DNA of 64,000 nucleotides, from contig CAVQCM010000002.1 of assembly GCA_963711045.1 (NCBI GenBank), positions 12,218-76,217 on the forward strand, in the 5' to 3' direction. A program made the translations under genes and the position numbers. Positions 11,422 to 41,051 of this stretch are shown in pieces. Under the pieces are notes generated by a model. That model had not been told where the DNA came from, made no database searches, and saw nothing but the letters and a program-made list of their open reading frames with translations. Positions within the stretch are counted from its first letter, which is position 1. Each line of letters begins with the position of its first letter. The stretch comes from an uncultured bacterium. Lineage in GTDB: Bacteria; Babelota; Babeliae; Babelales; Babelaceae.

Positions 11422-12075
11422 TTAGCCTTTTTTAGGAGGCTTAGGAAGTCGTGCTAGGTCTTTTATGGTACCAGCAAAGAGGAGTACATCGTTCTCAGTA
11501 ACAAGATAATCAGCTCGGACTGGTTCAATGTCGTTACTATCTCGTTTGCCAATGCATTGTATGCCATAGCTTTCTGGGAAATTGAGTTCTTCTATGCTTT
11601 TTTTCTGAAACTCCTCAGGAGCTTCTAGTTCGCTAATGCAGTAGTTAGCAGCCAGTCGTGTGACGGCTTTAAATGGTAAGCTAAGTAGATCGGCAACGCG
11701 TCGACCTTCCTCACGCTCAGGCAAAATAACTTGATCAGCTCCTATCAGAAGAAGTATCTCTCTGTGGATGTCACTTATTGAGCGAGTAATAACATTGGGA
11801 ATTTTTAGTCGATGTTTACAAAGAGCTGTTACTAATATGGATTGGGCAAAATTTTCACCCATGGCGACAATGACGGTATGCATACCTTCTATGCCTACTG
11901 TTCGTAATGACTCTTCATCTCTAATGCGTAAGCATACCGCTTGGGTAACTTTATCTCTTATTTCAGCAATGATAGCTTCATTGCTATCAATGGCCAGCAC
12001 TTCCATGCCATTTTCTGCAAGGGTAGTTGCTACATGATAACCAAACCGTCCAAGACCGATAACACAAAATTTCAT
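11422..12075 (-). CDS. trkA: K+ uptake system NAD-binding subunit (TrkA/KtrA family)
   Basis: 217 aa. Rossmann motif VIGLGRFG, RCK N- and C-lobes. Adjacent to trkH. Confidence 0.85.
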   Translation of the reverse strand: MKFCVIGLGRFGYHVATTLAENGMEVLAIDSNEAIIAEIRDKVTQAVCLRIRDEESLRTVGIEGMHTVIVAMGENFAQSILVTALCKHRLKIPNVITRSISDIHREILLLIGADQVILPEREEGRRVADLLSLPFKAVTRLAANYCISELEAPEEFQKKSIEELNFPESYGIQCIGKRDSNDIEPVRADYLVTENDVLLFAGTIKDLARLPKPPKKG

Positions 12076-29943: not shown

Positions 29944-30019
29944 GGGGCTGTAGCTCAGCTGGCAGAGCGCCTGGATGGCATTCAGGAGGTCAGGAGTTCG
30001 ACTCTCCTCAGCTCCACCA
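29944..30019 (+). tRNA. tRNA-Ala (anticodon GGC), encoded CCA
   Basis: GGGGCTGTAGCTCAGCTGGCAGAGCGCCTGGATGGCATTCAGGAGGTCAGGAGTTCGACTCTCCTCAGCTCCACCA. G3:U70 identity pair present. Confidence 0.9.
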
Positions 30020-30832
30020 TTATGATTCTTTTATAGTGATATTTCCACGCGTTGCTTCAAGAGTTATCGGTGCCGATGCACGTAATTTTTCCAGTTCTTC
30101 AGTATCTTTAAATTTACCTAAGACACCTACGATGTCTTTTTTAACACGATCAATCCAGTTTTTGTCCAGTTTTGTGGTAAGTATCATGGTGACAGGATGT
30201 TCACTTACTATGGTGCCTCGCTGAACGTTAGCAGTCAGGGTAGCCCGTGTTTCCCTTGGTAACGACAGGTCAATTGAACCTTTGTGCGCCTGTAAAAAAA
30301 TGCTGTTTGGCTCAACGAGTTTGCGTTGTTTTACGGTGATTTTGCCATTGCCTGTTTTTGCAATGACGGTTTTAGTTGAATCCTTTATATCAATTGATCC
30401 CGATTCGACTGACACATCAATATCTCCACTGATACCATTAATGGTGACGTTTCCTTTTGTTTGTGTTATTTTTACCGAGGCATCTTCTGGCACCCTAAGA
30501 GTATAGGTAACCTGTGCAGAAGAGCCTTCTTCTTTGAGTTGCGTGGTAATAGAAGCTTCTTTTCCTGATACTTTGCTCTTAATGAGGGTTTCTTTAAGTT
30601 GTTCAAGATTACCAACTTTTTCAACTTCAAGCGCAATCTTTTGTTGGTTCCACGGCTTAATAGTATATGATCCATTAGTATTAACAAGCGTAATATGGGA
30701 GTTTTTTTGGACAGGAATATCTTTCTTGATTTTTTCTACTTCATTCTTTTGCCAAAACTTAAAGTTGATACTATGGCAAGGAATATGGTATATCGTTATA
30801 ATAAGTAGGGGTAAAAAACGTAAGGTGTTCAT
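30020..30832 (-). CDS. exported DUF4097-like (putative adhesin, beta-helix) protein
   Basis: 270 aa with a signal peptide. Repeated G(N/S)(V/I)(T/D)I..(S/T)G.I.V motifs. The stop codon directly abuts the 3' end of tRNA-Ala. Confidence 0.65.
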   Translation of the reverse strand: MNTLRFLPLLIITIYHIPCHSINFKFWQKNEVEKIKKDIPVQKNSHITLVNTNGSYTIKPWNQQKIALEVEKVGNLEQLKETLIKSKVSGKEASITTQLKEEGSSAQVTYTLRVPEDASVKITQTKGNVTINGISGDIDVSVESGSIDIKDSTKTVIAKTGNGKITVKQRKLVEPNSIFLQAHKGSIDLSLPRETRATLTANVQRGTIVSEHPVTMILTTKLDKNWIDRVKKDIVGVLGKFKDTEELEKLRASAPITLEATRGNITIKES

Positions 30833-32303
30833 AAGTAAATCCTTTTAGTAAAAGTATCGTACCATGAAGTCTACACAAATTTTGCCAAAAGTTGAATTGG
30901 CACTTACACATCTTCTTAAGCACCATGAGGTGATACCTCGAATCGTACGTCATATAGAAAATGCAGGTGGCACTGCTTACTTAGTAGGTGGTGCCGTACG
31001 AGATCTTATCTTAGGAAGAAGGGTACTTGATATCGATATCGAGGTGCATGGCCTTTCACTAGATCAGCTAAGCGATATTTTGTCACAGGAGGGACCAGTT
31101 TCGTATGTTGGTAAATCATTTGGTATCCTTAAGTTGCATGGGACAGAAACAGACTGGGCACTTCCTCGTACAGATACTTCTGGTAGAAAGCCAGTCGTAC
31201 ATCTTGATCCACATATGGGTATTTATGAAGCGCTCAGACGACGAGATCTTACCATGAATGCCCTGGCTATAAACCTTGCTACCTTTGAGTTTATTGATCC
31301 TTTTCATGGCCTTGATGATATTACAGCGAAAGTACTACGATCGCCGGATCTTCAGTTTTTCACCGAAGATCCGCTGCGTTTTTATCGCGTCATGCAATTT
31401 ATTGGACGCTTTGAGATGTATCCTGATGTTGCCCTTAATGAGAAATGTACTCATATGGACATTTCTACTGTTTCAATCGAACGGATAGAATATGAATTTG
31501 AGAAGCTTTTACTTAAAAGTAAGTGGCCTTCGTTAGGTATTCGATGGCTTCATGATATACATCGGCTTGCCGATATCCTTCCAGAACTGGCTCACTGTGT
31601 TACCACACAGCAAGATCCAAAATGGCACCCAGAAGGAACGGTGTATGAGCATCTTATGCAAACGGTTGATGCTGCTGCGCAGTTAGATCTAGCAACCAAA
31701 GATAAAAATCTGACGTTGCGGTATGCAGCACTTACCCATGATCTTGGTAAGGTCTCTACCACCATTGTAAAAGACGGACATATTAAAAGTCCTGGTCATG
31801 CCCAGGCAGGAGCTATCTATGCCCAGGCATTGTTAAAACGCATTACACGCAAAGTAAAACTTATAAAAGCTGTCGTGCTGCTAGTTAAATACCATATGGA
31901 ACCCAGCGGATTTATAAAACAAAACGCCGGGTTAGCTGCCTATAAACGATTAGCATTTAAGTTAGCAACATATACTTCTCTTGAGATGTTGGCTACATTA
32001 GCATTAGTTGATCGGCGAGGGCGTAATGCAGATGGTCCAATGCCATTAACGATAACGCCACCTTTTATTGTAGAATTTCTCAAAAAGGCTGAAAAAGCAG
32101 GTGCTCTGTTTGAGCCTGAAAAACAGATTTTGCAAGGTAGGGATATCGTGGACCTTGTCAAACCAGGCCCATTGATGGGTAAGCTGCTTTCATTTGCTTT
32201 TGAACATCAAATAGAAGAAGGAATTCAAGATAAAGAAACGTTGAAAAAAATGGTGGTTAAGCGACTTAAGCAGCTGAAAAAAAGCCGGGATATATCTTGA
32301 TGG
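30384..32303. repeat. segmental duplication, copy A (~1.92 kb)
   Basis: Colinear with 35021-36940 at a constant offset of 4637 nt with no indels seen. Covers the 5' 450 nt of the DUF4097 gene, the 31-bp divergent spacer and the whole cca gene. Confidence 0.9.
30864..32300 (+). CDS. cca: CCA-adding tRNA nucleotidyltransferase with HD domain, copy 1
   Basis: 478 aa. Pol-beta NTase motif GGAVRDLILGR..LDIDIEV, RRDLTMNA, HD motif LRYAALTHDLGK. Confidence 0.85.
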   Translation: MKSTQILPKVELALTHLLKHHEVIPRIVRHIENAGGTAYLVGGAVRDLILGRRVLDIDIEVHGLSLDQLSDILSQEGPVSYVGKSFGILKLHGTETDWALPRTDTSGRKPVVHLDPHMGIYEALRRRDLTMNALAINLATFEFIDPFHGLDDITAKVLRSPDLQFFTEDPLRFYRVMQFIGRFEMYPDVALNEKCTHMDISTVSIERIEYEFEKLLLKSKWPSLGIRWLHDIHRLADILPELAHCVTTQQDPKWHPEGTVYEHLMQTVDAAAQLDLATKDKNLTLRYAALTHDLGKVSTTIVKDGHIKSPGHAQAGAIYAQALLKRITRKVKLIKAVVLLVKYHMEPSGFIKQNAGLAAYKRLAFKLATYTSLEMLATLALVDRRGRNADGPMPLTITPPFIVEFLKKAEKAGALFEPEKQILQGRDIVDLVKPGPLMGKLLSFAFEHQIEEGIQDKETLKKMVVKRLKQLKKSRDIS

Positions 32304-32351
32304 TAACGGTAGATTTATTCACATAGGAAGCTAGGGCTCATTATACTGATG

Positions 32352-32621
32352 TTAGATAAAAGGTCCGACAAAATGGCCTATCGAGTCAGCAATCTCTTTA
32401 GAGTATGCTGCTTGAGAGTTGCCGTCACCTTCTTTGCAGTCACTCTCTTTGTATAGAAAAAGCTTCTGGAAGTTTACATACCTGCGATACCATAAAGGAT
32501 TTTGGGCTGGACATGAAAAAGAGTCAATGCATTAGATTTGAAGTTATATTTCTATATCCTTAAGCTTTTTATTCAGTTGGAGAATGTTGTCGGCAACCAC
32601 AAATATTATTGAATTATTCAT
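32352..32621 (-). pseudogene. candidate decayed small gene (two in-frame stops)
   Basis: A strong Shine-Dalgarno sequence (AGAGGTGA) precedes ATG at 32619-32621. The 25 codons end at TAA. The same frame reopens after two stops and runs 59 more codons (CIDSFSCPAQNPLWY...GHFVGPFI*). Confidence 0.3.
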
Positions 32622-32905
32622 AATTCACCTCTTTCGTATCTTTATTAAATGGCCAGTTTAAAAAAAATCACAAACCCTTGCTTTTTTTTAAATGAGTATA
32701 GTAGAATGAATGCGTACCTGCTATACAAGGAGACCGAAGGTTAGCACATAAGCATGATGGTGCAACAATTAGAATCTAAGTTTACGATGCTCTACCAAGG
32801 ATATCTTTGTGGAAATAGGGAAGAAAGCTACCGTGGGGGTAGCTGAAAACATTACCAAACAGCCTAGAAAAAGGCTGTATTACTTCATCTAACAGAGGAG
32901 AACAA

Positions 32906-34717
32906 ATGATGAAGAAGTTTATTCAATTATTTAGCTTGGCTCTTTTGGTGTCGCCAGTATGTGCTAAGAAGAATAAAGACCATGGGCGTAAGAAGAAGGA
33001 GCATCCTTGTATCGATTGGAATACTTTTTGCTTCCAAGGGTGTACAATGCCTGCTTCCGCAGTAATTGACCCAACTGATCCAACACAGAGAGATAAATAT
33101 GACAAAATGCGCAAATTGCAGTTGAGTACTTTCGAGCTGTGCCTTCAGGAAAATATTGGTCATTATATAGATATGGGTGACCAAATTTACTCAGATGAAA
33201 CTCTACGTTCTGGTGTTCCTGTACACTTTGGGTATATTGTAGATTACATTGATGCTAATGCTCTGTATTTTCTTTATGTTGATCCTGCTACTAATCAGGT
33301 ATATCCTGAATATCAAGATGTTGCATTAGTTATCTATAACCCCCTATTTAATGAAGATACATTGTGGCTTCTAAAAACTCCTCGGTATTATGATGCCCTT
33401 TACCCTAATGGCATAGATAATTTGCTTGAGAACAAAAAGTTCCAATGGAAAGAGCTCATGAATACGAAAACGGCGCGACAATTGCGTTCTCGTATCGGAT
33501 CACGTAACTTTTTGTATTGTCCTGATGATCATGATTGGGAAATAAGTGATACAGCTGACTCACTAAGTGTAATTGCTCAACAAACATATGCTTTGGCTGA
33601 AAAATATATGTTTAATAATGATCGATGTCATCCTCAAGTTATTCAGATGAATGAACGAAGGAAAAAAGGAAATGATAATCCCGGATTTTACTATACTGTT
33701 GCCTATGAACTGTACCCTGGTAAGTTTGTACAGCTTGTTGGTTTCGATGAACGAACCCAGGCGATTGGTTCTGTTATACAAATGAGAAGAGATAGAACGA
33801 CTGGTGAAATCACCTATTATGCTATGGCTAATTCTGGAGGAAATAACTATAATCCATTACTACCCCCTGAAGTTGCAGAAATGTTTACGCGCACCTATGC
33901 TAAACAGGCTACCACTCTTGGTAAAAACCAACTACTCTGGTTACGAGATGTGCTTCAAAAAGATGGAAAAGTTCCTGCGTATAGTAAAGAAGGCAAATAT
34001 CTAGGCTATTCGCTCAATCAAGACCAAATCTATTTCAGATGTTTGATTGGAAATACGACATTAATTTCTGGGGCAGGGTTTCGAGATAGATTGTCTACTC
34101 AAGAAACCTCTATTTTATATCATCTCTTTAATGGAGGTGACATCGTAGATGATCCAAACGGTGTGGTAACACCGATTGATCCTCTAAACTATGAAGGTAA
34201 AGAGGCAGTAAGGGGTATTCTTTGCTTAGAAAGTGGTAACCATCATTTTGATGGCTTCAGAACCGATAGTTCAACACCATTAAATCAAACTGTTGAACCA
34301 GATATTAATGGCATTATCCCACCATATACAATTTATAGTTATGCAATGTCAAACTGGACGAGTGATGAAGGTGTTGTTGGACCAATTACCTTGAATAGTA
34401 TTAATACACTCGATTCTGCAGCGGCATTCCGTTACGACGAACGCTTTAGACGTACCTTTACTACTGGTGATTATATCAATCAACCATCTGCTATAACAAT
34501 AACTTTTGATTTAGAAAAGGATGGATTTGAGAAAGCCTTTGTAAAAGCTGTTTCATGGGGTAATCAAAATATATTCCCACAGCAAACAGACTCCCCAGAG
34601 TATGTATTAGACAACTCAGCATTTAATGTTAAGCCATATAGCTTAATGGAAGATACATTAGTCTATGAACAGTTGCGAAAAGCTCCAGCAGCTGTAACTG
34701 CCGCTGACAAGGAGTAA
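32906..34717 (+). CDS. secreted putative metallophosphatase (PhoD-like)
   Basis: 603 aa. GAGGAG Shine-Dalgarno sequence and signal peptide. The metallophosphatase-like motifs MGDQIYSDE and CPDDHDWEISD resemble PhoD GDxIY / DDHE. The assignment is tentative. Confidence 0.55.
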   Translation: MMKKFIQLFSLALLVSPVCAKKNKDHGRKKKEHPCIDWNTFCFQGCTMPASAVIDPTDPTQRDKYDKMRKLQLSTFELCLQENIGHYIDMGDQIYSDETLRSGVPVHFGYIVDYIDANALYFLYVDPATNQVYPEYQDVALVIYNPLFNEDTLWLLKTPRYYDALYPNGIDNLLENKKFQWKELMNTKTARQLRSRIGSRNFLYCPDDHDWEISDTADSLSVIAQQTYALAEKYMFNNDRCHPQVIQMNERRKKGNDNPGFYYTVAYELYPGKFVQLVGFDERTQAIGSVIQMRRDRTTGEITYYAMANSGGNNYNPLLPPEVAEMFTRTYAKQATTLGKNQLLWLRDVLQKDGKVPAYSKEGKYLGYSLNQDQIYFRCLIGNTTLISGAGFRDRLSTQETSILYHLFNGGDIVDDPNGVVTPIDPLNYEGKEAVRGILCLESGNHHFDGFRTDSSTPLNQTVEPDINGIIPPYTIYSYAMSNWTSDEGVVGPITLNSINTLDSAAAFRYDERFRRTFTTGDYINQPSAITITFDLEKDGFEKAFVKAVSWGNQNIFPQQTDSPEYVLDNSAFNVKPYSLMEDTLVYEQLRKAPAAVTAADKE

Positions 34718-34782
34718 CAACCTGTATCTATATACTAGTACTGACGCTCTCACTAGTTGAGCATATTAGTCTATAACTATGG

Positions 34783-34817
34783 CATGAGACCTCTTTAACA
34801 AATGGAGAGGTCTCATG
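34783..34817 (+). terminator. hairpin downstream of the PhoD-like gene
   Basis: Perfect 12-bp stem CATGAGACCTCT/AGAGGTCTCATG with an 11-nt loop. Weak T-tract. Confidence 0.4.
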
Positions 34818-34920
34818 TCATTTAGCGGATGACAATTAATAGGTATGATTGAAGAAATTTCCGAGTCTTAAATCATTATGTTCATAATGGTAAAAAGAAG
34901 AGAGAAAAAGGAGCTGATTG

Positions 34921-35020
34921 TATGTTAAAAAAAGAGCCGGGATTAAACCCGGCTCATACATTATTATTCGTTTGTTGAAGTCAAGCTGCCGAATGAGGAT
35001 AGCAGGCTTTTAGCAAATCC
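34921..35020 (-). pseudogene. 3'-terminal remnant (last ~18 codons plus terminator) of a paralog of the 38048-38746 gene
   Basis: About 85% identical by eye to 38014-38110. Encodes GFAKSLLSSFGSLTSTNE* versus GFAKSLLSSFNSLTSTNE*, and carries the matching GAGCCGGG...CCCGGCTC hairpin. Confidence 0.65.
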
Positions 35021-35469
35021 TATATATCAATCGATCCCGATTCGACTGACACATCAATATCTCCACTGATACCATTAATGGTGACGTTTCCTTTCGTTTG
35101 TGTTATTTTTACCGAGGCATCTTCTGGCACCCTAAGGGTATAGGTAACCTGTGCAGAAGAGCCTTCTTCTTTGAGTTGCGTGGTAATAGATGCTTCTTTT
35201 CCTGATACTTTACTCTTAATAAGGGTTTCTTTAAGTTGTTCAAGATTACCAACTTTTTCAACTTCAAGCGCAATCTTTTGTTGGTTCCATGGCTTAATAG
35301 TATATGATCCATTAGTATTAACAAGCGTAATATGGGAGTTTTTTTGGACAGGAATATCTTTCTTGATTTTTTCTACTTCATTCTTTTGCCAAAACTTAAA
35401 GTTGATACTATGGCAAGGAATATGGTATATCGTTATAATAAGTAGGGGTAAAAAACGTAAGGTGTTCAT
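35020..35469 (-). pseudogene. 5'-truncated-copy of DUF4097 gene (N-terminal 149 codons only)
   Basis: Identical or near-identical to the first 149 codons of 30020-30832. The frame ends in TAG exactly at the duplication junction. Confidence 0.7.
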
Positions 35470-36940
35470 AAGTAAATCCTTTTAGTAAAAGTATCGTACC
35501 ATGAAGTCTACACAAATTTTGCCAAAAGTTGAATTGGCACTTACACATCTTCTTAAGCACCATGAGGTGATACCTCGAGTCGTACGTCATATAGAAAATG
35601 CAGGTGGCACTGCTTACTTAGTAGGTGGTGCCGTACGAGATCTTATCTTAGGAAGAACGGTACTTGATATCGATATCGAGGTGCATGGCCTTTCACTTGA
35701 AAAGCTCAGTGATATTTTGTCACAGGAGGGACCTGTTTCGTACGTTGGTAAATCATTTGGTATCCTTAAATTGCATGGGACAGAAACAGACTGGGCACTT
35801 CCTCGTACAGATACTTCTGGTAGAAAGCCAGTCGTACATCTTGATCCACATATGGGTATCTATGAAGCGCTCAGACGACGAGATCTTACCATGAATGCCC
35901 TGGCTATAAACCTTGCTACCTTTGAGTTTATTGATCCTTTTCATGGCCTTGATGATATTACAGCGAAAGTACTACGATCGCCGGATCTTCAGTTTTTCAC
36001 CGAAGATCCGCTGCGTTTTTATCGCGTCATGCAATTTATTGGACGCTTTGAGATGTATCCTGATGCTGCCCTTAATGAGAAATGTACTCATATGGACATT
36101 TCTACTGTTTCAATCGAACGGATAGAATATGAATTTGAGAAGCTTTTACTTAAAAGTAAGCGGCCTTCGTTAGGTATTCGATGGCTTCATGATATACATC
36201 GGCTTGCCGATATTCTTCCAGAACTGGCTCACTGTGTTACCACACTGCAGGATCCAAAATGGCACCCAGAAGGAACGGTGTATGAGCATCTTATGCAAAC
36301 GGTTGATGCTGCTGCTCAGTTAGATCTAATGACCAAAGATAAAAATCTTACGTTACGGTATGCAGCTCTTACTCATGATCTTGGTAAGGTCTCTACCACC
36401 ATTGTAAAAGACGGACATATTAAAAGTCCTGGTCATGCCCAGGCAGGAGCTATCTATGCCCAGGCATTGTTAAAACGCATTACACGCAAAGTAAAACTTA
36501 TAAAAGCTGTCGTGCTGCTAGTTAAATACCATATGGAACCCAGCGGATTTATAAAACAAAATGCAGGATTAGCTGCCTATAAACGATTAGCATTTAAGTT
36601 AGCAACATATACCTCTCTTGAGATGTTGGCTACCTTAGCATTAGTTGATCGGCGAGGGCGTAATGCAAATGGTCCAATGCCATTAACGATAACGCCATCT
36701 TTTATTGTAGAATTTCTCAATAAGGCTGAAAAAGCAGGTGCTCTGTTTGAGCCTGAAAAACAGATTTTGCAGGGTAGAGATATCATGGATCTTGTTAAAC
36801 CAGGCCCATTGATGGGTAAGCTGCTATCATTTGCTTTTGAGCATCAAATAGAAGAAGGGATTCGGGATAAAGAATCGTTAAAAAAACTGGTGGTTAAGCG
36901 ACTTAAGCAGCTGAAAAAAAGCCGAGATACATCTTGATAG
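35021..36940. repeat. segmental duplication, copy B (~1.92 kb)
   Basis: See copy A. Scattered substitutions only. 16 amino-acid differences between the two 478-aa cca products. Confidence 0.9.
35501..36937 (+). CDS. cca: CCA-adding tRNA nucleotidyltransferase with HD domain, copy 2
   Basis: Full-length 478 aa with all catalytic motifs retained. Differs from copy 1 at 16 positions (for example I27V, R53T, W221R, A276M, D400N). Confidence 0.85.
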   Translation: MKSTQILPKVELALTHLLKHHEVIPRVVRHIENAGGTAYLVGGAVRDLILGRTVLDIDIEVHGLSLEKLSDILSQEGPVSYVGKSFGILKLHGTETDWALPRTDTSGRKPVVHLDPHMGIYEALRRRDLTMNALAINLATFEFIDPFHGLDDITAKVLRSPDLQFFTEDPLRFYRVMQFIGRFEMYPDAALNEKCTHMDISTVSIERIEYEFEKLLLKSKRPSLGIRWLHDIHRLADILPELAHCVTTLQDPKWHPEGTVYEHLMQTVDAAAQLDLMTKDKNLTLRYAALTHDLGKVSTTIVKDGHIKSPGHAQAGAIYAQALLKRITRKVKLIKAVVLLVKYHMEPSGFIKQNAGLAAYKRLAFKLATYTSLEMLATLALVDRRGRNANGPMPLTITPSFIVEFLNKAEKAGALFEPEKQILQGRDIMDLVKPGPLMGKLLSFAFEHQIEEGIRDKESLKKLVVKRLKQLKKSRDTS

Positions 36941-37320
36941 GATAGTTACGGGTGTTTTTCTAAGTTGGGCATTATTTTTTCCTGAACTGAAAATGGTTGG
37001 ATTGAAAGGAGTAGATACAGCAAAGTATGTTGAATTCACGGTGACTATAATGTGTGCCCCCATTTGTAGCCGCTCCGCTGTCATATTTTTGGTTCTCTGA
37101 GGTTATGACCCTTAAAAAGTGGTTAGGGCTTCTCGTTGGCTTTTGGGGCCTGCTTTCCACAATTGCTTAGTGTTGGACCGCTCACCGTAGATGTATATGA
37201 CTCTATTATAAATAATTTTGCTTTCCCTCGTTGCCTGGATGGCGCGAAAGAACTCAGCGAACATTTCTTCTACACGACATATGGAAAATTAACGTTGAGT
37301 GCTGTCAATAAAGATGGGTT

Positions 37321-37850
37321 CTAGGCACCGTTAAGTTCTTGAACGCTGCAATCAAACTCGATTTGTTCATGACCTTGCTTGATCGCCAAACCAACCAAAG
37401 TGATTGTTCTTCCATCTAAGTGATATTTTTCAAAGTATTTCTTGTCTGTTATCTGATCTAGTGCCTGTGCTGCAGATTTGTTGTACTTTAATTCGATAAC
37501 ATAAATATGGCGTGCTGTTTTTGCAACAAGATCTATGCGACCCTTATCAGTCAGTATTTCAGACTCAATGTCGAGTGCAAGCAGCTTGCCTATAAGTTGA
37601 AACATTGAATGATAGTAGCGCTCTTTCTTAATATGAAGGGTGTAGGGAATGTGAGCAAACAAACTTTGTAGAATATCACAAAATTGAGAGATATTATTAG
37701 TCTCAAGGGCATTTTTTAGCTTTGAGAGGGAGCTCTTTCAACATGCTGTATATTTGTTCGGGAGAAAGCTGCTAACAAGTATTTGTTAAATGAGTACCCT
37801 AAAGGGCAACCTTTCATTGATTCCCGCACATAAAAAAGAAGTGTCATAAA
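37321..37850 (-). pseudogene. decayed AAA-ATPase-like / PD-(D/E)XK nuclease (PDDEXK_9, former DUF1703) gene
   Basis: The 113-aa ORF holds the C-terminal nuclease core (KGRIDLVAKTARHIYVIELKYNKSAAQALDQITDKKYFEKY). Upstream matching sequence (MTLLFYVRESMKG...FSRTNIQHVERAPSQS*) is in another frame. The whole N-terminal ATPase part is missing. Confidence 0.6.
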
Positions 37851-37867
37851 AAAGGCTAGACCTTATA

Positions 37868-37904
37868 CCCGAGGAGCCTTTCAAAGCTCCTCGGGTTTTC
37901 GTTT
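37868..37904 (+). terminator. orphan terminator-like hairpin
   Basis: CCCGAGGAGC-ctttcaaa-GCTCCTCGGG followed by TTTTCGTTT. No intact plus-strand gene lies upstream. Confidence 0.35.
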
Positions 37905-38013
37905 ACTTTATCTTGATATACATTGCTTCATGCTAGCAAGAATAATATATTCGTAACGATAAAATAGAGCGATACAAGAGAAGTGCACAAGGAGAGGCAG
38001 CTTGCCAGTGTAA

Positions 38014-38042
38014 GAAAAAGAGCCGGGATTATATCCCGGCTC
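38014..38042 (-). terminator. intrinsic terminator of the 38048-38746 gene
   Basis: On the minus strand, GAGCCGGGAT-ataa-TCCCGGCTC followed by TTTTT, 5 nt after the stop. Confidence 0.65.
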
Positions 38043-38047
38043 ATAGA

Positions 38048-38746
38048 TTATTCGTTAGTTGAAGTCAAACTATTAAATGAGGATAGCAGGCTTTTAGCAA
38101 ATCCTACCATCATTTCGCTAAATGTTGCTTCGTGATATAACTCCTCAGTGAGCGTATTAATGGCATCGGCAATAGCAGCAGTAATGTCCACAAGGGCGTT
38201 AAGTTGTTCTTCGACCTGTGCAGCATCTTCTTTAGCTATTATAGTTGTTAGCTTGTTATTAAATGTCTCAACGGCTGTGAGAGCCATAACAAGGCGAGAA
38301 GTACTTGCCAAAATAATGTCATCTTCCTGAGGCGCATCAGCTTTTTGAGTTGATGACCAGGTGAATAAACCACCTACTTTTTTAAAGAACCCATCAGGTT
38401 TGAGCGTTTTTACTGCCTTGGTGCAAAGTGCTGGAGCTTTCTCTAGCTGTGCAATAACTGTTTCGATTGTTTGCTCAATTTTTATGATGTTATTTTGATT
38501 TTCTTGCTCTCCTGGCAAGAGTTCTTCGCCTTCTTTCTTATGCTGCGCAAGCTCACTATTTGTTTGGGCAAGCATTTCTTTGAGAGCAGATGCATCCTTA
38601 CCGAATGCTTTGATATCACCAATATCCTCTGTAGTAATGGTGATAATCTTTGTAGTCTCTTCTTCCTTAGTTGCTACGTCATCCATAGCGAATAATGAAG
38701 GAGAGAAGGCGAGTAATGCTGCAAGACTCATGAAATGTTTTTTCAT
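38048..38746 (-). CDS. hypothetical secreted alpha-helical/coiled-coil protein
   Basis: 232 aa. AAGGAG Shine-Dalgarno sequence, signal peptide MKKHFMSLAALLAFSPSLFA, heptad-like Glu/Lys/Ala-rich sequence. Confidence 0.65.
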   Translation of the reverse strand: MKKHFMSLAALLAFSPSLFAMDDVATKEEETTKIITITTEDIGDIKAFGKDASALKEMLAQTNSELAQHKKEGEELLPGEQENQNNIIKIEQTIETVIAQLEKAPALCTKAVKTLKPDGFFKKVGGLFTWSSTQKADAPQEDDIILASTSRLVMALTAVETFNNKLTTIIAKEDAAQVEEQLNALVDITAAIADAINTLTEELYHEATFSEMMVGFAKSLLSSFNSLTSTNE

Positions 38747-39327
38747 GACGACTCCTTTTTGTAGGGGGATGAATAAAATATCAGCCTAAGCCTAAGGCGA
38801 ACAAGAGTGGTTGTCAATATATAAGTAGGGTCTAGTGAGATTGAGCGTAATGAAGGCAAAGTAATTAAACAGATACTCTATATTAAGAGTATATATACTA
38901 GTATGAGACGATTGATTATTTGGCAGGGAATCTTATTATACATAAATAATATAAGCCGAGAGGTGAAAGGTAAAGAAGAATGAGACAATATTGGTTCAAT
39001 CCGCTGTAATTGAGGCAAAAGGCTTGAGCTACAATAGAATCTTACGATATAATATAGTGTAATATATTCATAATATCATTGATTGTATACTGCTTGTATA
39101 ATTACAGCCTTTTTGCCCGGAAGTAATAGGAATTGTTTCTTGGAATTACTATATGGCTTTTCCCATTCATATAAAACATGCTATAAGTTTTATAGAGCAT
39201 TGAAATGAGAACTTGCTATGCATTGACGGCAAATTACATTTGATTGCTCATAATTATACTATGGTATTGCCTCCTCTTGCCTGGAGAAGTTAAAAAAATC
39301 TGAATAGAAGTAGTAGTCTATAACTTA

Positions 39328-39621
39328 TTACTGGACCTTTTCAGGGTTGTCTGTACGTGATAGAGATTGAATAGTGGCTACGGCAACACATTCCTCTTCT
39401 TCTTCCTCTTCTTCATCAATGTCATCCTCGAAGACCCATTCTACTGCTTGAAAAGCTATCTGAGGGGTATTGTGGCTATATACAACTTCTTTTTTAAGGA
39501 CAATCGTGCCATCTTCTTGGACAAAGAACTCAAGGGCATCGCCAGGTTGAAGATTTAAAGCAAGACGTATTACTTTTGGGATGGAGAGGTTGAATGAAGG
39601 TGATAGGGTAGATATAACCAT
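39328..39621 (-). CDS. SpoVT/AbrB-type (MazE-like) DNA-binding protein with poly-Glu tail
   Basis: 97 aa. The N-terminal looped-hinge-helix pattern (IPKVIRLALNLQPGDALEFFVQEDGTIVLKK) is followed by DDIDEEEEEEEE. Confidence 0.6.
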   Translation of the reverse strand: MVISTLSPSFNLSIPKVIRLALNLQPGDALEFFVQEDGTIVLKKEVVYSHNTPQIAFQAVEWVFEDDIDEEEEEEEECVAVATIQSLSRTDNPEKVQ

Positions 39622-39775
39622 TTTGTGGCTCCGATATATTTTATTTACTTTATTCTAGTATACTACAATCTAGTAGGCCCGTTAAGCTTTACTTTAAAGG
39701 AATGGAATTGTACCTACTTATAAGGTTTTTAGGAGATTTAGGCTCCGAATGGCTTTTTTTTGGCTATTTTAGTTA

Positions 39776-39822
39776 TTTTGGTCGTACAACCCATTTTTCA
39801 TAAATGGGTTGTACGACCAAAA
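39776..39822. repeat. perfect 21-bp inverted repeat (5-nt spacer)
   Basis: TTTTGGTCGTACAACCCATTT-ttcat-AAATGGGTTGTACGACCAAAA. Lies between the divergent AbrB-like gene and tolQ. Confidence 0.9.
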
Positions 39823-39903
39823 ATGAGTTGGTTTTGCAATTATCTTTAGTACAAAGTACACTAGAAAACAGTTAGCACACATTGAAAATGCAAAGGTTAT
39901 ATT

Positions 39904-40638
39904 ATGGCAATGGGTCTTTGGTCTCTCGTTTTATCAACTGATGTCACTAGTAAAATAGTTCTGCTTGTGTTGCTTGGCATGTCTATTACGTGTTGGGCTC
40001 TTGCAATCTATAAGCGAATGCTTACTAAGATTAAGCGTGAATCATTAGCGCATGCTAAGAACCTGCTACAAACAACTAAAAGTATGGAAGATCTTCTCAA
40101 TCGAGTTGCGGTAATACAGACAACCTATGCAGGAGAGCTCATAACTAATTTTTTAATTGATTTGAAAAAGATTATCCGCTTGCGTGATGCCGGCAATGAG
40201 ATTAAAGATGCAGACTGGCATATGTTACAGACATCATTACAACAAAGAATTGATGATGCGGTTACCGAGGAAGAATCACTTATACCGATATTAACCACCT
40301 CAGCTCAAGCGGCACCGTTAATAGGATTGTTTGGTACGGTTTGGGGATTGATTCATGCTTTCATGGAAATTGCTCAACAACGTACAGCTGATATAGCAGC
40401 GGTTGCTCCAGGTATAGCTGAAGCTTTATTAACAACGCTTGGCGGTTTGCTTGTTGCTATTCCAACACTTGGCTTAATAAGTTACCTATATTCTAATGCA
40501 CGTCTGTTAGAACAAGATATTGTAGAGTTAACAGATACCTGTACCTGGGTTTTTAGGGGGATTATTATATCTTCTTCAACACGAGTAAGCAAACCTACCG
40601 CCCAGAAGACTGTATCTGCTGAAAGGGAAATGGCATGA
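39904..40638 (+). CDS. tolQ: TolQ/ExbB-family proton channel
   Basis: 244 aa with 3 TM. MotA/TolQ/ExbB signature region (APLIGLFGTVWGLIHAF...AEALLTTLGGLLVAIP). Confidence 0.85.
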   Translation: MAMGLWSLVLSTDVTSKIVLLVLLGMSITCWALAIYKRMLTKIKRESLAHAKNLLQTTKSMEDLLNRVAVIQTTYAGELITNFLIDLKKIIRLRDAGNEIKDADWHMLQTSLQQRIDDAVTEEESLIPILTTSAQAAPLIGLFGTVWGLIHAFMEIAQQRTADIAAVAPGIAEALLTTLGGLLVAIPTLGLISYLYSNARLLEQDIVELTDTCTWVFRGIIISSSTRVSKPTAQKTVSAEREMA

Positions 40639-41051
40639 TTTCTCGGCGGATACGAAGAAAACAGCACCAGTTGCCAGAAGTGTCACTTACACCCCTGATT
40701 GATACCGCTTTAGTGTTATTAGTGATATTTATGGTGGCGACGCCGATTATGCATAACTCACTGAAGATAGATCTTCCCGAAGGAAACATGAAGGAAGAGG
40801 TTGATCCTTCACTTTCTTCACTAGTTGTATCTGTTATCCAGGGAGACAAGGTCTTGCTTAATGGGAGTGCATATTCTTTTGAAAGTCTTCTTAATGAGTT
40901 AGCAAAAAAAGTAAAAACAGCTAAAGATAAACGAGTATATGTTGATTGTGATAAAAAAGTATCCTCCGGAATGCTCGTGAAGGTTATTGACTCAATTAAA
41001 TATATAGCCGGGGTCGAACATGTTATTCTCTCTACCGAACGAGTACGATAA
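40635..41051 (+). CDS. tolR: TolR/ExbD-family protein
   Basis: 138 aa. LTPLIDTALVLLVIFMV with the conserved Asp in the single TM. ATGA overlap with tolQ. Confidence 0.85.
   Translation: MISRRIRRKQHQLPEVSLTPLIDTALVLLVIFMVATPIMHNSLKIDLPEGNMKEEVDPSLSSLVVSVIQGDKVLLNGSAYSFESLLNELAKKVKTAKDKRVYVDCDKKVSSGMLVKVIDSIKYIAGVEHVILSTERVR

Follow-up and report, generated by a model that had tools for sequence, protein, structure and literature searches.

Two versions of the cca locus, probably joined head to tail at a microhomology, in an uncultured member of the Babelaceae

The CCA-adding enzyme gene cca is present in two intact copies in a 64,000-nucleotide (nt) stretch of DNA, hereafter the window, from an uncultured bacterium of the Babelaceae (GTDB lineage Bacteria; Babelota; Babeliae; Babelales; NCBI GenBank assembly GCA_963711045.1, contig CAVQCM010000002.1, positions 12,218 to 76,217 of the forward strand). 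Each copy lies within a 1.92-kb direct repeat (repeat A, copies A1 and A2), which also carries the 5' end of a divergently oriented DUF4097 gene. An initial annotation, made from the letters of the window, described this repeat as a recent segmental duplication with a dispersed second copy. The structure is better read, with reasonable though not strong confidence, as two head-to-tail versions of one locus, that is, a tandem-type duplication with differing interiors, and not as a 1.92-kb piece pasted elsewhere. The tandem geometry follows because the sequence just before A2 duplicates the p232 tail, p232 being a gene that itself lies downstream of A2. This tail copy belongs to a second, 100-nt repeat (R and R') that is absent from the initial account.

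BLAST comparison of the window with itself aligned A1 (30379-32301) with A2 (35016-36938) over 1923 bp at 97.14% identity, with 55 mismatches, no gaps and an offset of 4637 nt; the colinear match was confirmed by a repeat search and a per-base comparison. The duplication described initially is therefore genuine, colinear and free of indels, its length was upheld by the self-alignment that had been proposed as a check, and the edges first placed at 30384 and 32303 fall within 5 nt of those measured (30379 and 32301). Its contents were also correctly described: 454 nt from the 5' end of the DUF4097 gene (minus strand), a 31-bp spacer (30833-30863) and, on the plus strand, cca in its entirety (478 codons). 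On the right, the edge formerly placed at the cca stop codon lies 1 nt beyond the TGA; the left edge lies inside the DUF4097 gene at approximately codon 151 of 270. Beyond these edges, identity drops to 29-31%, which is the random level (100 nt outside either edge). Repeat A has a copy number of two in the whole 1.78-Mb genome. Its copies and the genes they carry are the following (aa, amino acids; ORF, open reading frame):

30379 to 32301, no strand: repeat copy A1, 1923 bp, comprising DUF4097 codons 1-151, the 31-bp spacer and the whole of cca
35016 to 36938, no strand: repeat copy A2, 1923 bp, defined by self-comparison
30020 to 30832, minus strand: full-length DUF4097 (toastrack) gene, 270 aa, with a signal-peptide-like N-terminus (Pfam PF13349, E 8.9e-7)
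30864 to 32300, plus strand: cca copy 1, 478 aa, intact, with a class II tRNA nucleotidyltransferase head and an HD domain (PF01743, E 4e-18; PF01966, E 5e-7)
35501 to 36937, plus strand: cca copy 2, 478 aa, intact, with 16 amino-acid differences from copy 1
35020 to 35469, minus strand: truncated DUF4097' ORF, 149 aa, its protein identical to the first 149 residues of the full gene
30773 to 30802, plus strand: promoter-like site for cca, ATGGCA-18-TATAAT, inside the DUF4097 coding sequence (consensus match only)

The PolyA_pol head (PF01743) and the HD domain (PF01966) were detected in both cca copies, which are the only two matches genome-wide. NCBIfam CCA models are the top matches for both, though under the curated cut-offs. 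With their full length, head and HD domain, both copies are predicted to encode class II CCA-adding enzymes. Each retains at least 454 nt of upstream sequence, including the promoter-like site, and either may be expressed. This site recurs, again as a consensus match only, at 35410-35439; its first occurrence (30773-30802) falls within a 288-nt mismatch-free tract (30654-30941).

The second repeat was detected in the same self-comparison, with R (34923-35022) and R' (38009-38106) sharing 86% identity over 100 nt. R touches the left edge of A2, ending exactly where A2 starts. The elements that complete the layout are:

34923 to 35022, minus strand: R, a remnant with the last ~19 codons and the terminator hairpin (34934-34955) of a p232-type gene
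38009 to 38106, minus strand: R', the native 3' end of p232 with its terminator (38020-38042)
38048 to 38746, minus strand: p232, 232 aa, a secreted coiled-coil-like protein without family match, with a paralogue on contig C1
35016 to 35021, no strand: novel junction J2, with AATCCT microhomology seen in a three-way alignment
32302 to 34922, no strand: segment B, cargo of unit 1, unrelated to segment C
36939 to 38008, no strand: segment C, the cargo in unit 2, made up of gene debris; a PD-(D/E)XK_9 fragment lies at 37321-37662 on the minus strand (Pfam PF08011, E 8e-17)

The order of these elements is A1-B-R, then A2-C-R', then the body of p232. A1 and A2 form the left ends and R and R' the right ends of two units, with the end of unit 1 (35022) abutting the start of unit 2 (35016). 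Unit 1 (30379-35022) contains the 5' part of DUF4097, cca, cargo B and the p232 tail R, while unit 2 (35016-38106) contains the truncated DUF4097', cca, cargo C and the p232 tail R'. The units are not homologous along their whole length, as B (2621 nt) and C (1070 nt) are unrelated; no local alignment between B and C, or between the flanks just past the repeat edges, exceeded shuffled controls. R and R' differ by ~10% mismatches and two indels. This is comparable with the silent divergence of A, suggesting a comparable age for A and R, which the opposite ends of a single unit should have. A derivation of R from the C1 paralogue of p232 was ruled out, only two copies existing.

At J2, the DUF4097 breakpoint has the motif AATCCT in common with both R and R'. 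The truncated DUF4097' ORF terminates in a TAG sitting at the join, and the borrowed terminator follows. J2 is the single novel join, given that the left flank and the p232-tolQ flank are both syntenic with relatives; the outer borders, on the left of unit 1 and on the right of unit 2, are thus ancestral. Six nucleotides of microhomology at the sole novel junction indicate that the join was illegitimate and microhomology-mediated, in line with the mechanism suggested initially. We consider it fairly probable that one such join, at AATCCT, linked the p232 tail to approximately codon 151 of DUF4097 and set the two versions of the locus head to tail. It would have arisen by unequal recombination between two copies of the region. 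The differing interiors would reflect an insertion hot spot in the short interval that separates the p232 terminator from the cca stop, with unit 1 having received an orphan secreted-protein gene with a family-type promoter and leader, and unit 2 an AAA/PD-(D/E)XK gene now reduced to debris. By a small margin, the preferred form of this scenario is one in which the partners were already ~3% diverged alleles from two strains in one host cell.

Comparison with relatives shows which parts of the locus are ancestral. The material comprised 30 relatives searched genome-wide and 16 named loci that possibly overlap with them, the closest named relatives by Cca similarity being Babeliales, Dependentiae or TM6 metagenome-assembled genomes (MAGs). 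Across these, the order dnaX-der-hpf-dsbD-DUF4097-cca-gap-tolQ-tolR is widely conserved, and a syntenic DUF4097 orthologue adjoins cca in every relative. The gap between cca and tolQ is only ~70-140 nt in several Babeliales and 1.3-11 kb in the genus and family of the window, where it contains effector-like genes of the ankyrin, leucine-rich repeat (LRR), Fic-like and secreted coiled-coil types; the gap after cca is thus an insertion hot spot in the lineage. One relative (G006) has a convergent 232-aa secreted-protein gene ending 16 nt past cca. The genome-wide search of the 30 relatives revealed no second full cca in any genome, and neither segment B nor its 603-aa gene was found in any of them. 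The single cca and the absence of B in relatives indicate that the duplication is derived.

At least three other Babeliales genomes contain partial duplications at the cca locus (G014, G002 and L040). In G014, the 3' end of cca, an ankyrin gene and the 5' end of the gene that follows make up an older tandem unit, still recognisable at 73-91% identity. G002, from the same genus as the window, has a 359-bp direct repeat of the cca 3' end (99.2%; L018, 7626-7984 versus 11434-11792) that brackets a 932-aa ankyrin gene. Beside this repeat, in an 11-kb cca-tolQ gap, are a Fic-motif-like 467-aa gene and an 887-aa ankyrin gene. In L040 (Babeliales, CAZSHB010000001.1, 7876-9969), a 294-bp repeat of the DUF4097 and cca 5' ends flanks two LRR genes. 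One of the LRR proteins begins with the DUF4097 signal peptide (MNTKQFL...), apparently through capture of promoter and signal peptide.

Substitution patterns bear on the age of the join. Both cca frames are intact, with a synonymous divergence (dS) of 0.094, a non-synonymous divergence (dN) of 0.016 and a dN/dS of 0.17; all 16 replacements occur at positions variable among relatives and are spread over both copies. Truncated DUF4097' differs from the full gene by seven silent and no replacement changes (dS 0.076). The probability of this silent-only pattern is 0.004 if the stub drifted neutrally while the full gene was constrained (0 versus ~11 expected replacements). Orthologues of two related species (G005 versus G001) provide a baseline, with a dN/dS of 0.11 in cca and, in the matching DUF4097 region, of 0.055. 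The differences between A1 and A2 accordingly resemble those between functional orthologues. This suggests either that the versions diverged as functional alleles before joining or that the DUF4097' fragment is still under selection. In the former case the join would be younger than the divergence; in the latter, the stub and both cca copies would have been under purifying selection since a duplication in situ. The former is only slightly favoured. The duplication is therefore not clearly recent, as had been proposed, given a silent-site divergence of ~0.08-0.09 and a silent-only DUF4097' pattern suggesting that most divergence predates the join. Three tracts of the repeat (288, 205 and 188 nt) are free of mismatches over more sequence than expected by chance (P about 0.007 and 0.003); the longest takes in the spacer together with the start of either gene. 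Gene conversion may have left these patches, or they may reflect nucleotide-level constraint on a shared promoter block.

The single cca of the 30 relatives marks the duplication as derived. The best relative's Cca is only 68% identical, and clusters at 90% identity hold only proteins of this genome. In consequence, polarity and timing are read from substitution patterns alone, the individual substitutions having no polarising outgroup.

An assembly artefact, in which the contig would string together two uncollapsed haplotypes or strains of a single locus, is very unlikely. It would fit the geometry of two alleles in tandem, which resembles the false duplications of haplotype-rich assemblies, and the genome is a four-contig MAG with 2.9% estimated contamination. 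However, no gap or run of N is present, and the overlap at J2 is only 6 nt, far too short for an assembler join. Of the four borders, three recur in independent Logan contigs (run ERR11571143), which were retrieved with the 603-aa gene, with dsbD and tolQ, and with a 94-aa version of the PDDEXK ORF that has another start. L031 (23501-30425) contains the left flank and the A1-specific bases at 30385 and 30395; L030 (32258-35021) contains the A1-specific bases at 32288 and 32293, followed by B and R; L033 (36895-38105) contains A2-specific bases, followed by C and R'; and L032 (38077-40922) links R' to tolQ. Both variants of A are thereby linked to different unique neighbours. Every Logan contig stops exactly where the next 30-mer is common to both repeat copies. 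The left flank runs without interruption through a single 6.9-kb contig, which ends only 46 nt inside A; such a break fits a true repeat with two left neighbours in one genome and does not fit a mixture of two strains differing throughout. Comparable structures are also present in other, independently assembled genomes. Junction J2 is not among the borders covered by the retrieved contigs, which favours an artefact; exact-protein look-ups with cca1, cca2, the 149-aa stub, the 113-aa PDDEXK ORF and full DUF4097 returned no independent contigs. Between contigs and assembly there are four single-base differences in L030 and five in L031 (e.g. 32307, 32684, 33799 and 33823) and none in 36895-40922, which suggests low-level population variation or polishing differences.

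The dispersed copy envisaged initially, in which a 1.92-kb piece (5' DUF4097 and cca) was inserted 4.6 kb downstream by illegitimate recombination with B already there, is similarly improbable. It would account for direct repeats separated by unrelated DNA, for the microhomology at one edge and for the fact that mobile-element genes were not found. It would, however, make a coincidence of the p232-tail copy left of A2, whose original lies 3 kb rightward and whose divergence equals that of the silent sites of A. A pair of illegitimate joins would also be needed, yet a single edge is novel, since in relatives the gap normally begins at the cca stop; B, moreover, is absent from all 30 relatives. 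More serious, though still clearly less probable than the preferred scenario, is an in-situ tandem duplication between sister chromosomes followed by ~9% silent divergence, with purifying selection maintaining the stub and both cca copies, and with independent insertion or replacement of cargo in the two units. The geometry would be the same as in the joining of two strain alleles, from which it differs only in the timing and origin of divergence. Tandem arrays of paralogues that are 85-95% identical abound in the genome, G014 contains an in-situ tandem unit at this locus, and the LRR protein of L040 that reuses the signal-peptide end of DUF4097 indicates that a truncated copy may have a use. 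Against this, the tight constraint on the full gene would have to apply equally to a truncated half-domain (none of ~11 expected replacements, P 0.004), and at least two more events would be required to produce the wholly unrelated B and C.

A divergence older than the join, as between strain alleles, would explain both the silent-only DUF4097' pattern and the orthologue-like dN/dS of cca, and the joining of two strain alleles is preferred on these grounds. Several observations nonetheless weigh against it, in addition to the missing cover of J2. The silent-only pattern rests on seven sites, and the mismatch-free tracts hint at gene conversion between resident copies, and thus at some time of co-residence, which also favours duplication in situ. 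B and C show no residual similarity, and a plain duplication would require added insertion or replacement events. The strain-allele form further depends on an as yet unobserved donor strain; the collections yielded neither a second strain nor a single-copy relative closer than 68% protein identity. Nor is a route of inter-strain exchange evident. The only ComEC (PF03772) match in the genome (C4:563819-564220) contains two in-frame TAG codons, and DprA was not found in this 96%-complete genome. DNA-uptake machinery may therefore have decayed, and the fact that no intact competence machinery was found is again in keeping with an in-situ origin.

Mobile elements provide no explanation for the structure. 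No transposase or integrase match and no inverted repeats of at least 30 nt were found in the 28-40 kb interval, which bears out the initial annotation, and a transposon, insertion sequence or integrative element was rejected on this basis. Tandem segmental duplication that is independent of RecA and mediated by microhomology has been studied in Salmonella and Escherichia coli and is a well-known event. The present structure shares with it the head-to-tail units, a single join with a few bases of microhomology, the lack of mobile-element genes and a product that would be unstable to homologous recombination. It differs in that the unit interiors are unrelated and the units are 3% diverged with an orthologue-like substitution pattern. 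A Campbell-type insertion-duplication, i.e. a single crossover with a circle, would likewise place cargo between direct repeats and, if the partners were diverged, leave divergence across the whole repeat. No plasmid or vector remnant is present here, and such a circle, besides forming by the same AATCCT join, would need to contain A, B and R; by sequence, insertion of an A-B-R circle would be indistinguishable from the preferred explanation.

Two further systems offer partial parallels. In T6SS (type VI secretion) effector-immunity arrays of Vibrio cholerae and in Rhs orphan arrays, homology-facilitated illegitimate recombination with sequential module displacement has been proposed (PMC5361080). 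Both cases have a conserved upstream anchor gene, cargo added by one homologous and one illegitimate join, older remnants pushed downstream and no integrase. In the window, however, the anchor (cca and half of DUF4097) is duplicated rather than replaced, the cargo does not consist of toxin/immunity pairs, the ComEC-like gene looks broken and DprA was not found. Integrative elements that target gene 3' ends resemble the locus in that, in the window genome, G002 and G014, an inserted gene is bordered by a duplicated cca 3' end. They differ in that here no integrase or recombinase is present, the repeats are 190-1923 bp long with differing inner edges, and no conserved core resembling an attachment (att) site is seen.

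The cargo of unit 1 includes two annotated features:

32906 to 34717, plus strand: orphan 603-aa gene with a signal-peptide-like start, in segment B
32660 to 32847, plus strand: ~190-nt promoter-plus-leader repeat, of a genome-wide family found upstream of secreted-protein genes

The label 'PhoD-like', first given to the 603-aa gene, finds no backing in profile searches: Pfam gave nothing at E <= 1 except a chance DUF, and neither NCBIfam nor a PDB profile search gave any match. Only the short motifs GDQIY, DDHDWE and GNHHF, conserved in four family members, recall metallophosphatases. A HMMER scan of 1.8 billion representative proteins retrieved only three homologues, and the AlphaFold model is unusable (predicted local distance difference test score, pLDDT, 30). 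In segment C, the gene debris has better-preserved counterparts; full-length relatives of its gene type (AAA/PD-(D/E)XK) fill the same gap in G002 and L036.

Copies of the ~190-nt repeat occur beyond the window at C2:149766-149955, C3:12934-13124 and C3:20635-20823, with further copies at C4:637685-637830, C4:698484-698650 and C4:728494-728622. The family, of 73-78% identity, begins with a promoter-like CCCTTGCAT-N17-TATAGT, followed by ~150 nt with conserved hairpins. Most copies are located 8-240 nt upstream of long ORFs with signal-peptide-like starts. No Rfam family was matched and RNAalifold indicated little covariation. The repeat may represent a shared promoter/leader cassette of a secreted-protein regulon.

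Outside the two units, the following features were annotated:

29944 to 30019, plus strand: tRNA-Ala(GGC), abutting the DUF4097 stop in the conserved left flank (ARAGORN; Rfam tRNA, 61.8 bits)
39328 to 39621, minus strand: AbrB/MazE-like gene, left of tolQ
39904 to 41051, plus strand: tolQ-tolR, the conserved right flank of the variable gap

This tRNA alone was matched by Rfam over 29.8-40 kb, and the Pfam matches in the region are limited to DUF4097, PolyA_pol/HD, PDDEXK_9, MazE/AbrB-like and DsbD. A perfect 47-nt palindrome (39776-39822) lies between the AbrB/MazE-like gene and tolQ and also appears as a self-match in the genome BLAST.

The genome is unusually duplication-rich for its 1.78 Mb, with 977 matches of at least 400 bp at >=85% identity, consisting of tandem and dispersed paralogue arrays (for example, C4:39422-50937, C2:107835-125212 and C4:1103254-1109541). 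Of its 35 predicted tRNA genes, 34 encode the 3' CCA; the remaining one, tRNA-Thr(CGT) (C4:1173422-1173495), does not, indicating that Cca is needed for at least one tRNA and for end repair. Nothing suggests a need for two copies of cca. RecA is present and intact, and the 1.9-kb direct repeat could permit RecA-dependent deletion of B together with one copy.

No general principle is changed by these findings, as the rearrangement is real but ordinary and microhomology-mediated segmental duplications are well known. They do provide a base-resolved example of an obligate intracellular, protist-dwelling bacterium (Dependentiae) enlarging a variable region without mobile-element enzymes, in which a housekeeping gene, cca, was swept up in the event and both its copies stayed intact. 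That a truncated gene has diverged at silent sites only also offers a simple test for a between-strain origin of the duplication. The arrangement dnaX-der-hpf-dsbD-DUF4097-cca, gap, tolQ-tolR constitutes a marker site at which island growth can be compared across Dependentiae. On a more speculative and rather improbable reading, the spacer that follows the cca stop would act, together with the bidirectional promoter block of DUF4097 and cca, as an integrase-free cargo-capture site in Babeliales. Host-interaction genes (ankyrin, LRR and secreted orphans) would be added repeatedly through cca-anchored recombination, with part of the anchor duplicated each time and the promoter or signal peptide sometimes lent to the cargo, as in L040. 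If true, the site would be a lineage-specific analogue of effector-array accretion in T6SS/Rhs loci.

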